DNA of 63,703 nt, the filler included, from Candidatus Nezhaarchaeota archaeon WYZ-LMO8 (GTDB taxonomy: Archaea > Thermoproteota > Methanomethylicia > Nezhaarchaeales > WYZ-LMO8): NCBI GenBank assembly GCA_004347965.1. It is 3 parts of 3 records of this genome, joined end to end, with 100 filler letters (N's around TTAATTAATTAA, not from the genome) between each part and the next. Parts side by side here need not be neighbours in the genome. Positions count along the whole stretch, not along the records: positions 29,131 to 57,031 come from QNVF01000019.1; 2 more parts are not named here. One strand, given 5' to 3'. The translations under genes and the position numbers were made by a program. Shown here piece after piece: positions 44,001 through 57,428 of this stretch; positions within the stretch are counted from its first letter, which is position 1; each line of letters begins with the position of its first letter. The notes below the pieces were generated by a model. The model saw only the letters and a program-made list of their open reading frames with translations, did not search any database and was not told the DNA's origin.

Positions 44001-44157
44001 GTTGATTTCATTGTCTCACCTCTTCCCCCGCATCCCGCTCGGTTTCTCATCAGGCTCAGGGGCGTTCAGGGATAACCCCCTGGACCCACATCTTGAGTAA
44101 CTCGGGGAGAGCTGATCTACAGAGCTCTCGACCCCTCATCGGGCTACTTCCACGCAC
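44001..44157 (-). ncRNA. Structured RNA or miniature element with box C/D-like K-turn motifs; possibly derived from an IS200/IS605 (tnpB) element
   Basis: GC-rich intergenic stretch with TTATAA box at 44175-44180; CGAUGA-GGGG...CCCC-UGA, UGAUGA-GAAA-CCGA, GAGAGCU/AGCUCUC and CAGGG/CCCUG helices; ends in TCAAC. Confidence 0.55.
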
Positions 44158-44235: not shown

Positions 44236-45382
44236 TTAGACGTTTAAGTGAAGAACGTCTTCAGTACTCTTTATGCCATGCTTCATCGCTATGTAGCAAG
44301 CACCCTCTACGCTAACAGCACATGGACCTACAGGATTTATTGGCGTACAAGCTTTACTGTAAAGTGGGCATTCCCAGGGATATATTAAGCCTTTCAGAAC
44401 ATCAGCGCATCTACACCCCTTCGGCATACCCTCCTCGATCGTTACCTCTATGTCGAATCGTTTTAAGGCATCGTAATGCTCAAATTCTTTCTTAAGTTCT
44501 AGCTTAGACATTGGTATTACACCAATACCTCTCCAGTCGCCATCGCATGGCTTAAAGACCTCCGTCATAACTCTCTTCGCTTTAACGTTCCCCTCTCTTT
44601 TAACGCTTCTCGTGTACTCTACCTCAACATCGCTTCTACCATCTCTTATTTGTTCAAGTAACATAACTAGTGATGCCAAGACATCTAAGGGTTCAAAGCC
44701 GCCTATCACCATCGGTTTTCCATACCTCTTGGCTATGGGCACGTAGGGCTCTGATCCTATGATGGTTGACACATGGCCTGGACATATGAAGCCCCCTATT
44801 GCTATGTCACCGCTTTTGAGTAAATGCTCCATAGCTGGTGGTATGAGCCTGTGACTTACTATTAAGCTGAAGTTCTCAGGTACCCCTCTCATTAGCTCTA
44901 TAGCTGTCGTGGGAGCTGTGGTCTCAAAGCCTATGGCGAAGTGCACTACTTCACGCTTAAGCTTCTTGGCAATGCTTATTGAGTCCGCTATGCTGTAGAC
45001 TATTCTAACGTCAGCACCTCTAGCCTTAGCTTCCATAAGCGACGTACCTCTAGCACCTGGAACTCTAAACATGTCACCGTATGTTGTGAGAACAACGTTT
45101 TTAGATAGAGCGAGGTCTATGGCTGCTTGAATCTCAGCAACGCTCGTAACGCATACTGGGCAACCGGGACCAGATCTAACTTCAAGACCTTTGGGTAATA
45201 GGCTTCTCAAACCAAACCTAGATATTGTCCACTCGTGAGTCGGCCAGGGCTTAACCCCGTGTACCGCATACGTGCATTATTATCAGGTGCTCTAGTGATA
45301 GCTCCTTGAAGAGCGTGTATATCTTCTTGGATAGAGCACTTGCAATTCCTCCGTCTCTAAAAGGCTCAATCATCTCAGCCAT
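44236..45382 (-). CDS. hypD: Hydrogenase maturation protein HypD, two exons (45382-45261 and 45238-44236), 374 aa after splicing
   Basis: Exon 1 ends IMHVCG-AC and exon 2 begins T-HEWTISRFGLRSLLP; GPGCPVC, GFETT, PGHVS and GPCAVS.EG.C motifs. Confidence 0.93.
45239..45260 (-). other. 22-nt bulge-helix-bulge (tRNA-type) intron in hypD mRNA
   Basis: UG-CGGU-AC^A-CGGGGU-UAA-GCCCUG-GCCG-AC^U-CA gives a 4-bp helix with two 3-nt bulges; canonical cuts restore the frame and CGTH. Confidence 0.88.
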
Positions 45383-45444
45383 ACGTTGAGAATGGAGCGA
45401 AGCCTAATAACTGTTTTTCCAACTCTCTTTTATTGCGAGTACGT

Positions 45445-46002
45445 ATGGTTAAGAAGGTCTTAGCGTTAGGCGACTTTCACATACCTGAAAGAGCCTATTG
45501 GATACCTGAAGAGCTAGAGAAGGAAGTTACTAGGGAGAGTTACGACATAGTGCTTTGTACTGGAGATTTAACGACTGGAGAAGTATTATCATGGCTTCAA
45601 AGGCTAGCATCTGAAGTCTACGTGGTAAGGGGCAACATGGATTACTTGAAGCTACCTCTTCAGCTCGTCGTTAATGTTGAGGGTTTAAGGGTTGGATTAT
45701 ATCATGGAGCAGGAGTGCATCCTAGAGGTGACCCAGTTAAGCTAGCGGTTAGGGCAAAGCAAATCAACGTTGAGGTGTTGGTTACTGGGCACACTCATTA
45801 CCCATACACTACATTCGTGAAGGAATATGGAGTCGTAATAGTTAATCCAGGTTCAGCAACAGGTGTTTGGGGCGGTGACGAAAGAGCTACGCTAACACCC
45901 AGCTTTGCAATCATGTGCATTAGGGGTAGGGAGCTACTCATCGAACTAAAAGAGCTAAGAAACTCGCATTTTGAAGTAGAAAAGTACAAGTTTCAATTGT
46001 AG
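45445..46002 (+). CDS. YfcE/MJ0936-family metallophosphoesterase
   Basis: GDFH, CTGD, RGNMD, HG, GHTH and NPGS motifs. Confidence 0.92.
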   Translation: MVKKVLALGDFHIPERAYWIPEELEKEVTRESYDIVLCTGDLTTGEVLSWLQRLASEVYVVRGNMDYLKLPLQLVVNVEGLRVGLYHGAGVHPRGDPVKLAVRAKQINVEVLVTGHTHYPYTTFVKEYGVVIVNPGSATGVWGGDERATLTPSFAIMCIRGRELLIELKELRNSHFEVEKYKFQL

Positions 46003-46337: not shown

Positions 46338-46571
46338 CTATAGCTCTAAGCTTATTGCTTTAGCTATTTCTCTCCAAAGTCTTAAAGTCTCTTCGGCTTC
46401 CTCTTGATCTAATACTTGAATTGCATAACCTGTATGAACTAGTACGTAATCTCCAGGTCTTACTTCCTTCTCTAAAAGGGATAACATAACTTCTCTCCTA
46501 ATGCCTCCGAAGTCTACGAGAGCCCTATCCCCTCTAATCTCAACAACTTTACCTGGTACAGCTAGACACAT
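46338..46571 (-). CDS. hypC: Hydrogenase maturation chaperone HypC
   Basis: MCLAVPGKV and GDYVLVHTGYAI motifs. Confidence 0.96.
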   Translation of the reverse strand: MCLAVPGKVVEIRGDRALVDFGGIRREVMLSLLEKEVRPGDYVLVHTGYAIQVLDQEEAEETLRLWREIAKAISLEL

Positions 46572-51004: not shown

Positions 51005-51112
51005 TGGCGCCGGGGGCGGGATTTGAACCCGCGTGCCCCCAAGGGGCACCGGCTTTCTGGCCTCAACTATGAGATCTCGAGGCCGGCGCTTTGACCACTC
51101 AGCCACCCCGGC
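51005..51112 (-). tRNA. tRNA-Ser(CGA) with a 21-nt intron (51055-51075) and encoded CCA
   Basis: CCGGC-CTCG-AGA...CCAG-AAA-GCCGG; long variable arm. Confidence 0.92.
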
Positions 51113-56515: not shown

Positions 56516-57031
56516 AGTAATTATGGTTTATTCAAGACATTAAGTTTTCCCTTTACCTTGACGGTTCCTAGCTAGAGGAACAGCAGGGTTAAGTCGATGC
56601 TGCTAAGAAAGTGTGAGATAAACATTAAAAGCAGCCTTATTTAAGGCAATGTCAAGGCCGAGCAAGCTATCAACTATGAGAGTAGCAAGCTTAGAAAGTA
56701 GTTTACTGTCTAATTTTCGTACGTGATGATATCTGCGTTAAAGAACCAGCTTGCCACGAGTTGTAGGCTCTTATCATATTGGCTGATGAAGTGTCGTGGA
56801 AGACATAATCTAAGTGCGTCACCATGAATATCAGTAAGCTCTAAAGGCAAGACTATAAGCTACCACTATTTGGGGAAGCTTGCTAGAAAGAATAGGTTGA
56901 CAAGTGATGTTTAGCCATAATTTTAGATTCCGTTCCATGCACACTTCTCAATAAGAGACTTGAAGAAAGCAATTCTAGAGATCCATGAATTAAAGGAAGC
57001 TAAACGCTCTAATATTATGCTGAAGTCAGTA

Positions 57032-57130
57032 NNNNNNNNNNNNNNNNNNNNNNNNNNNNNNNNNNNNNNNNNNNNTTAATTAATTAANNNNNNNNNNNNN
57101 NNNNNNNNNNNNNNNNNNNNNNNNNNNNNN
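57032..57130. other. Artificial contig-junction linker
   Basis: N runs flanking TTAATTAATTAA. Confidence 0.97.
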
Positions 57131-57134
57131 NAAG

Positions 57135-57428
57135 ATGTTCTTCGCCAAACACTCTCCACTTGCGATCCAGTACGCCAAAAGAGCGGCGAGTACAATAGAC
57201 TTTGAAGTTAAGGTTGCTCCTCTACCCTTCGCTGGGAGTGATGCTGCAAACTTTTCAAGGAAGGGTTTACATGCGGTGAGCATTTTCGGTCTTTCAGCGA
57301 AGGATAACGCCCCCTACTACTGGCATACCATGGATGATACCCCAGAAAATCTGAGACCAGAGTCAATAGAGAAAGCAATTCTATTTACTAAGAACTTCGT
57401 CTACATAGTTGACTCATTACAACAGTAA
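57135..57428 (+). CDS. M28-family peptidase, C-terminal fragment truncated by the linker
   Basis: GSDAANF and YWHTMDDTPENL motifs. Confidence 0.8.
   Translation: MFFAKHSPLAIQYAKRAASTIDFEVKVAPLPFAGSDAANFSRKGLHAVSIFGLSAKDNAPYYWHTMDDTPENLRPESIEKAILFTKNFVYIVDSLQQ

Follow-up and report, generated by a model that had tools for sequence, protein, structure and literature searches.

The gene hypD, on the minus strand of a 63,703-nucleotide (nt) stretch of DNA from Candidatus Nezhaarchaeota archaeon WYZ-LMO8 (GCA_004347965.1; "the window" below, meaning the whole stretch analysed), is interrupted by a 22-nt insert, which is very probably an archaeal bulge-helix-bulge (BHB) intron lying within the coding region and removed from the mRNA. 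The minus strand reads ATG CAC GTA TGC GGT AC, then ACGGGGTTAAGCCCTGGCCGAC, then T CAC GAG TGG, and the parts of the gene are as follows.

45261..45382, minus strand: hypD exon 1, 122 nt, from the ATG at 45382 to the AC of a split Thr codon.
45239..45260, minus strand: predicted BHB intron ACGGGGTTAAGCCCTGGCCGAC, 22 nt, with an in-frame TAA in its hairpin loop.
44236..45238, minus strand: hypD exon 2, 1003 nt including the stop, beginning with the third base of the Thr codon and then CAC GAG TGG.

Read without splicing, the ATG frame (45382..45251) ends after 43 amino acids (aa) at the TAA within the insert, and the next listed hypD open reading frame (ORF), at 45210..44236, has 324 aa. This longer ORF matches the Pfam family HypD (PF01924) over profile positions 38-350 of 351 (E 6.9e-126), and the 43-aa N-terminal ORF matched no Pfam family; that exon 1 provides the HypD head absent from the 324-aa ORF is seen from a gapless alignment with full-length homologues, not from Pfam. 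If the insert is excised between the second and third bases of each bulge, 22 nt are taken out and 122 + 1000 nt plus the stop give a 374-aa frame without internal stop, whose junction LIIMHVCGTHEWTISRFG reads MHVCGTHEW and aligns gaplessly with intron-less HypD, e.g., that of an Odinarchaeota metagenome-assembled genome (MAG; MHVCGTHEDTISRFG). The original prediction had described just this arrangement (an insert at 45260..45239 between GGT AC and T CAC, a stop after 43 aa, a headless HypD from 45210, and excision of exactly 22 nt to give MHVCGTHEW in 374 aa from 122+1003 nt), and it is borne out by the sequence as read, by the ORFs and the start of the Pfam match at profile position 38, and by the open spliced frame. 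The split codon is the Thr of CGTH, an instance of the CGxH motif of HypD, and this motif exists only once the insert is excised; the GPGCPVC motif is encoded in exon 2. The Cys of CGxH is required for HypD function.

The insert and its exon flanks can be laid out position by position as an outer helix UG/CA, a central helix CGGU/GCCG, bulges ACA and ACU, and an inner hairpin CGGGGU-UAA-GCCCUG.

45267..45270, minus strand: 5' strand of the outer helix, exonic (last part of the Val codon, then TG of the Cys codon).
45263..45266, minus strand: central 4-bp helix, 5' strand CGGU, in the exon (Cys-Gly codons).
45260..45262, minus strand: 5' bulge ACA, with the predicted cut between 45261 and 45260.
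45245..45259, minus strand: inner hairpin CGGGGU-UAA-GCCCUG, 6 bp with a 3-nt loop.
45241..45244, minus strand: central 4-bp helix, 3' strand GCCG, in the intron.
45238..45240, minus strand: 3' bulge ACU, with the predicted cut between 45239 and 45238; its third base is the Thr wobble base.
45234..45237, minus strand: 3' strand of the outer helix, exonic (CA from the His codon, then the bases that follow).

The order of the strands (outer, central, bulge and inner on the 5' side, then inner, central, bulge and outer on the 3' side) is that of pre-tRNAs, with the exon supplying the 5' strand of the central helix, and a free minimum-energy fold contains the same central helix, ACA bulge and hairpin as this decomposition by hand. 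The cut positions follow the archaeal BHB rule, between the second and third base of each bulge, as stated in passages of PMC2738675.

Conservation of the insert among relatives

The closest HypD sequences come from MAGs labelled by their submitters as Nezhaarchaeales, Methanomethylicota or Nitrososphaerota, at identities of at most 85%. Across 79 hypD loci from species genomes, an insert lies at the same Thr codon in 14 (L001-L008, L010-L013, L016 and L079), two (L052 and L067) were left unjudged, and 63 are uninterrupted, 58 of these reading TGYGGN ACN CAY GAR and five having other residues after CGTH or CGG. A DNA pattern with conserved flanks found 15 stretches in 185,579 species genomes, every one of them hypD of a Thermoproteota-type MAG, and added two carriers, L209 (Bathyarchaeia) and L212 (Culexmicrobium thermophilum); this longer pattern was used in place of a looser, flank-only one that matched at least 119 unrelated bacterial stretches. 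In total, 16 species genomes carry an insert at the same codon, and these are Nezhaarchaeales-like, Bathyarchaeia and Culexarchaeia-like. The same pattern applied to metagenomes gave 43 stretches (L294-L336), whose inserts come in 34 different forms of 20-37 nt. With the exception of one, a 28-nt insert with a one-base shift of the stem, they fold in the same register.

A sample of the phylum gave hypD in 210 of 300 genomes, with a signature of interruption in seven among the matches listed (150 listed, 67 further): five begin at profile position 28-29, and the remaining two have an in-frame stop and ~30 extra bases. One genome of the sample, G280, has two hypD copies (C2:203862-204821 and C11:2225-3268), one starting at profile position 29, i.e., with the interrupted signature, and one intact.

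These surveys also bear on whether the 22 nt might be an assembly or sequencing artefact, absent from the DNA of the organism, which we regard as extremely improbable. Logan contigs of three DNA runs from different studies (X10, X11 and X1, the last possibly the source run) cross 45239-45260 with no gaps and at most one differing letter, and no joint is seen at the site in any run. Moreover, the insert sits at the same codon in the 16 separately assembled species genomes and the 43 metagenome contigs.

The gene on both sides of the insert appears to be maintained. All seven Nezhaarchaeales-type hypD genes, when joined by the cut rule, give frames of 371-377 aa without stops, and the ratio of non-synonymous to synonymous changes (dN/dS), taken from the three unsaturated pairs among relatives since synonymous sites are saturated in most hypD pairs, ranges from 0.04 to 0.11 in exon 1 and from 0.06 to 0.07 in exon 2. 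As the ratio is low in both, exon 1 (40 codons before the insert) seems as constrained as the rest, which indicates that both exons are under purifying selection. This matters for a reading in which the insert is never removed and hypD is either a pseudogene or split into a 43-aa peptide and a separate C-terminal protein. Gene callers would indeed list two ORFs for such a gene, and the Pfam blank of the N-terminal one fits it too; such a reading is nevertheless very unlikely, since both parts stay open in all seven sequences at the low dN/dS just given, and the earliest possible start beyond the insert, a TTG at 45210, is preceded by nine conserved codons (HEWTISRFG). It would also cut the CGTH motif and leave a covarying BHB without purpose, and hypD is single-copy in three Nezhaarchaeales-type genomes (G001-G003; the other two related genomes used below are G004, Culexmicrobium, and G005, Bathyarchaeia).

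We compared the fold across 17 sequences, i.e., the window and 16 loci. The 4-bp helix and the two 3-nt bulges are present in 17/17: the central helix is CGGY/GCCG, paired throughout, with an invariant 3' strand (GCCG) and a fourth pair that is C-G in 12 and U-G in five. The 5' bulge reads ACA in 15 and ACG in two, and the 3' bulge is always 3 nt of the form A-N-N (AGU, AAC, AUU, AAG, AAU, AAA or AUA in relatives). Outside this core the sequences diverge. The inner hairpin is unlike between groups (CGGGGY... in the Nezhaarchaeales type, UGACYGAG... in Bathyarchaeia and CAGCCGC... in the Culexarchaeia type), and a fourth family, of 37-nt inserts with the stem CAACUUCC.../...GGAAGUUG, occurs in metagenome contigs only. 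The inner helix, of 6 bp in the window, ranges from 4 to 11 bp in relatives, most Bathyarchaeia copies having 2 bp, a mismatch and then further pairs; the outer helix has 4 contiguous bp in most relatives vs. 2 in the window. An in-frame stop lies within the insert in 15 of the 17 copies, and those inserts of 21 and 33 nt found in some genomes, whose lengths are multiples of three, carry one as well; such stops may be selected for an early end of translation on unspliced mRNA.

Covariation was counted over 16 pairs, or 246 cells, in a MAFFT alignment of the 17 sequences made without reference to the structure. Bases pair in 95.9% of the cells, vs. 27.1-39.1% after displacing the 3' partners by 1-3 columns. 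Changes on both sides of a pair occur in 36 cells (shuffled mean 13.2, reached by 0/500 shuffles), the covariation score is 0.369 vs. 0.172 (0/500 shuffles), and seven of the eight inner pairs are altered on both sides. The exons take part in this: the third base of the Val codon against the third base of the His codon is G-C in nine sequences, A-U in four, G-U in two and unpaired in two (one being the window), so that these wobble bases can pair in 15/17 intron-bearing vs. 11/58 intron-less hypD genes. The exon wobble bases thus co-vary to maintain the outer helix. Bulge and helix geometry, flanking helices, an open spliced frame and compensatory change, by which a BHB intron is recognized, were all found for hypD. 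The tRNA-type BHB intron that had been predicted in the CGTH motif is hence upheld by a shared site, constant geometry, covariation among the 17 aligned sequences (a proposed check), selection, intron-less junctions and DNA contigs.

Like inserts in other genes, and the splicing machinery

Scanning the window for other genes repairable by BHB excision returned only hypD, the other matches lying within intact genes or joining neighbours. A scan of contig 1 of G001 (1,024,082 nt) for compact BHBs that join two open frames gave 42 candidates, from which 37 pairs of halves were submitted to Pfam (of the five omitted, four repeated a submitted place in a different register, and in one a piece boundary left a half of 10 aa). 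Among the submitted pairs, the downstream halves of hypD and uS5 begin inside the family profile; 10 further pairs showed either a complete family or the first part of an adjacent gene (e.g., SRP19/Gar1, eIF6/L18Ae), and neither half of the remaining 25 matched a Pfam family. A scan requiring no outer pair gave 87 candidates, with 85 downstream halves sent to Pfam, among which purA and cbf5 stood out and most others had no family. The four genes mended (hypD, uS5, purA and cbf5) are a lower bound, given that a single 1.02-Mb contig was scanned, a Pfam match was needed, and most other candidates were whole neighbouring genes or without family. The suggestion that other "pseudogenes" of this lineage may be spliced as well finds support in relatives, in which one cut rule mends uS5, purA and cbf5.

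[quoted passage not shown] Its BHB is relaxed, with a helix CCCU/GGGG, bulges AGA and AAA/AGA, a hairpin GCCC...GGGC and an outer helix of 0-1 bp. Excision, computed in G001, G002, G004 and G005 and with the layout read by eye only in G003, restores GHGGTLDPKVTG and the motif GTL-D-PKVTG. Passages of PMC2738675 locate the classical cbf5 intron at this very point of the Asp codon and, as of 2009, in Desulfurococcales and Sulfolobales only.

The uS5 and purA genes carry an insert in G001-G003 and are continuous in G004 and G005. The uS5 insert, 28 nt in G001 (C1 858975..858948, minus strand; L284) and 30 nt in G002 (L285) and G003 (L283), lies between the codons for QTD and AGE; its near-canonical BHB has a helix ACGG/CCGU, bulges ACA/AUA and AAG/ACG, and an 8-10-bp hairpin with a C-G to U-A double change in the inner stem of G003, and excision gives VQ(K/R)QTD|AGE. 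In purA, 16-17 nt lie inside the P-loop GDEGKGK, splitting the Lys codon after its first base (G001 C1 621660..621675, plus strand, L290; L293 in G002; L288 in G003); the helix is AGGG/CCCU, the hairpin GGC-loop-GCC has loops UUA, UUUA or UUCG, and excision gives GDEG-K-GK. Protein genes of Nezhaarchaeales thus hold at least four mini-introns (hypD, cbf5, uS5 and purA), all in codons of invariant motifs. Such siting would follow if the exon half of the helix cannot drift there, so that a helix between exon and intron can last.

The inserts fall in all three codon phases (phase 0 in uS5, phase 1 in purA and cbf5, phase 2 in hypD), and as one geometric rule mends four genes in three phases, bypass or frameshifting is an unlikely mechanism. 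For hypD, translational bypass would have the ribosome leave at the Thr codon ACA and land 22 nt on at ACU, as in gene 60 of phage T4, and in the window both bulges do read as Thr codons, separated by a hairpin and a stop close by. This match of take-off and landing codons is not kept in relatives, in which the 3' bulge varies; what is kept, in 17/17, is the BHB geometry, and it is the same geometry that mends the other three genes, while the covariation of the exon wobble bases would have no role. We consequently hold bypass to be highly improbable.

Three further observations concern these inserts and the scanned contig. Translations of the cbf5, uS5 and purA inserts likewise show an in-frame stop. 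All inserts, those of hypD included, start with A and end with A-N. Finally, a 19-nt BHB candidate in G001 (C1 880118-880136, plus strand) adjoins a tRNA T-arm-like sequence (GGGTTCGAATCCCAC) and is probably a tRNA intron at a non-canonical position.

Excision would call on the tRNA splicing endonuclease EndA and the ligase RtcB. An EndA catalytic domain was found in 5/5 related genomes and RtcB in 4/5, and both G002 and G004 encode two EndA paralogues (174-191 aa). The nearest matches of one paralogue are the B chains of 3p1z, 3ajv and 2zyz (E 1e-46 to 1e-48), and those of the other are 5x89 and 1a79, with weak matches to chains A of 3p1z and 3ajv; we take these entries to be crenarchaeal two-subunit EndA enzymes of broad specificity. 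The window has a tRNA intron of its own, 21 nt near the anticodon of a tRNA-Ser(CGA) gene (51008-51112, minus strand; Rfam, and ARAGORN in intron mode only). It did not serve as a control of the cut rule, because its borders are ambiguous (repeated AGA/AAA; ARAGORN 35/36) and no canonical BHB could be placed by hand.

From these parts we infer cleavage, ligation and an intron circle, as follows. In the pre-mRNA, the Cys-Gly codons (CGGU) would pair with the 3' end of the intron (GCCG) in a 4-bp helix, flanked by two 3-nt bulges, the inner hairpin and a short outer helix between the exons. EndA, of the two-subunit type in relatives, would cut between the second and third base of each bulge, and RtcB would join the exons and probably circularise the 22-mer. 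The mature mRNA (...GGT AC|T CAC...) would then encode a 374-aa HypD with an intact CGTH, and an unspliced one would terminate at the in-frame TAA of the intron loop after 43 aa.

Weight of the evidence and history of the probable intron

Several observations weigh against an intron in hypD, or lessen the force of what speaks for it. Within the window, the free fold prefers a G-C pair across a 1-nt bulge at the 3' site, and the outer helix has two contiguous pairs (UG/CA) followed by an A.C mismatch; of the "strict" BHB first claimed, all the named helices, bulges and hairpin are present, and only the word "strict" was generous. The fold energy is ordinary (z = -0.54, with 51/200 shuffles folding as well), a score that is uninformative for a motif this short. 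BHB-like motifs are also common: a relaxed scan gives 673 + 633 = 1306 in the window, and ~29,000 were counted in 1 Mb of a relative. Because such motifs are frequent by chance and the energy is ordinary, the motif alone carries little weight, and the significance of the one in hypD comes from the repair of the frame at a conserved motif together with conservation and covariation in relatives. Two of the five covariation measures did not exceed shuffles, namely how many pairs are changed on both sides (8; 74/500) and how many further pair types occur (16; 251/500), and as the 17 sequences are kin the independent events are few, the three or four hairpin families rather than 36 cells being the real count. 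EndA and RtcB were sought in related genomes, and neither is encoded in the window itself. In the one RNA run (X15, a small share), contigs on hypD end at 45064 and none covers 45131-45565; with no contig over the junction the run gives no evidence either way on splicing, and the resemblance of its contigs to hypD does not imply transcription. The HypD tree described next is a quick one with only SH-aLRT (Shimodaira-Hasegawa approximate likelihood ratio test) values, and the group that holds the intron is not strongly supported (89).

This maximum-likelihood tree was built on 74 C-terminal parts; L052 and L067 (motif absent) and L074, L075, L078 and L079 (too short) were left out. All 14 intron-bearing rows fall in one group of 19, which takes in 7/7 Nezhaarchaeales-type and 4/4 Bathyarchaeia rows. 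Two intron-less loci, L009 and L017, are nested within the Culexarchaeia-type rows and carry the exact predicted spliced junction. Mapped on the tree, presence of the intron requires at least four changes, or three if strong branches alone are counted. The pattern fits an old hypD intron, with one gain and precise losses in some members, which is the same history as argued for the cbf5 intron; it is also compatible with hypD having moved between lineages by transfer, together with its intron.

Around hypD, the window contains hypC (46571..46338) and genes of the tetrahydromethanopterin C1 pathway (Mch, Mtd, Ftr, a luciferase-like Mer-type protein and Fwd-like subunits), as well as SepRS and an archaeal signal recognition particle RNA. 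Directly downstream of hypD, on the minus strand at 44023-44153, two stretches (44023-44071 and 44085-44153) recur in many other contigs of hot-spring runs; the region has a weak match to a C/D-box small RNA (sR53, 14.8 bits, far under the gathering score) and is possibly one or two C/D-box guide RNAs. A Peptidase_M28 fragment at 57135-57428 was considered as another intron-split gene and rejected, as it adjoins a run of N (~57030-57130), which is a gap between records and no biological break.

Known systems and meaning of the finding

An intron of the cbf5 pre-mRNA was reportedly described in Crenarchaeota by Watanabe in 2002. The hypD intron resembles it, as far as passages of Yokobori 2009 (PMC2738675) describe it, in being short, of BHB type, inside the coding region and at a codon of a catalytic motif, with a cut (predicted for hypD) between the second and third bulge base, and lost in some lineages; these passages also link the cbf5 intron to hetero-oligomeric EndA, and relatives with the hypD intron encode a two-subunit EndA. 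The two differ in gene and in lineage (Nezhaarchaeales-like, Bathyarchaeia and Culexarchaeia-like for hypD), and the hypD motif is near canonical, with both bulges and both flanking helices, whereas cbf5 has a relaxed one, whose outer helix measures 0-1 bp in the genomes examined. Splicing of cbf5 was demonstrated by complementary DNA according to the same passages, whereas that of hypD is deduced here from genomic sequence. A second known case, the HVO_1309 mRNA of Haloferax volcanii, has a BHB intron in its 5' untranslated region, processed by the tRNA splicing endonuclease and tested in vivo and in vitro (PMC7714728, in the portion available). The likeness is an mRNA with a BHB handled by this enzyme, as proposed for hypD; the HVO_1309 intron, by the same portion, lies in an untranslated leader on which no frame depends, whereas the hypD intron breaks the frame, and H. 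volcanii is a euryarchaeon with a single endonuclease gene, endA, whereas relatives with the hypD intron have the two-subunit type.

Archaeal tRNA introns share with that of hypD the motif, by inference the enzymes, and a central helix whose 5' strand is exon and 3' strand intron; in hypD, however, the host RNA is translated, and it is the encoded protein, not a tRNA structure, that fixes the exonic half of the motif. In the unconventional HAC1/XBP1 splicing of eukaryotes, a small intron (26 nt in XBP1) that shifts the frame is cut out of stem-loops by an endonuclease, and a tRNA ligase joins the ends. The nuclease there is Ire1, whereas EndA is proposed for hypD, and HAC1/XBP1 splicing is regulated by stress.

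Parts of PMC7714728 state that, as of 2020, the cbf5 intron was the only one reported in an archaeal protein-coding region, and the reference list of a 2025 paper (PMC12397907, in part) cites only work on the cbf5 intron. The full-text literature searched held no description of a BHB intron in hypD, uS5 or purA and no paper pairing "bulge-helix-bulge" with hypD; subscription journals and supplements lay outside this search, and a prior mention in them is possible. The available parts of PMC13149111, PMC3189178, PMC9723716, PMC4090602 and bioRxiv 10.64898/2026.10.13.758758 make no mention of hypD introns, and the terms transcriptome, hypD and intron were all unmatched in those of PMC12700198.

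The best-supported reading is thus that hypD carries an archaeal mRNA intron of the cbf5 kind, conserved across three archaeal classes, with like introns in uS5 and purA of Nezhaarchaeales. A variant in which this intron is real and removed conditionally, so that splicing gates HypD and [NiFe]-hydrogenase maturation by some signal (the regulatory checkpoint suggested in the original prediction), is compatible with all observations but unlikely. The in-frame stop in 15/17 inserts means that unspliced mRNA would give no HypD, and HAC1/XBP1, likewise with RtcB-type ligation, offers an analogy. Against it, the relatives have such introns also in uS5, purA and cbf5, which are housekeeping genes without an obvious shared signal; the close relatives L009 and L017 do without the intron, and tRNA introns of this kind are established to be spliced constitutively. 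One may speculate, as a somewhat wider but still doubtful idea, that the Nezhaarchaeales-type mini-introns of 16-30 nt (up to 37 nt for hypD in other lineages) are not passive relics and are either mobile, through a reversed EndA/RtcB reaction at sequences of invariant motifs, or conditionally removed. Were conditional removal true, splicing capacity would jointly gate the maturation of hydrogenase, the production of ribosomes and the synthesis of purines, and this would be an archaeal forerunner of regulated mRNA splicing.

A conserved, covarying BHB intron in hypD and like inserts in uS5 and purA suggest that the tRNA machinery splices mRNAs of more genes than cbf5. In practice, because gene callers split or truncate such genes, hypD may score as broken in Nezhaarchaeales-like, Bathyarchaeia and Culexarchaeia-like MAGs, and so may even uS5, the sort of ribosomal protein gene that serves as a completeness marker. 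The finding also raises the question of why these introns occupy codons of invariant motifs, and hypD, uS5, purA and cbf5 would together form a concrete set of substrates for studying how EndA chooses its mRNA targets.

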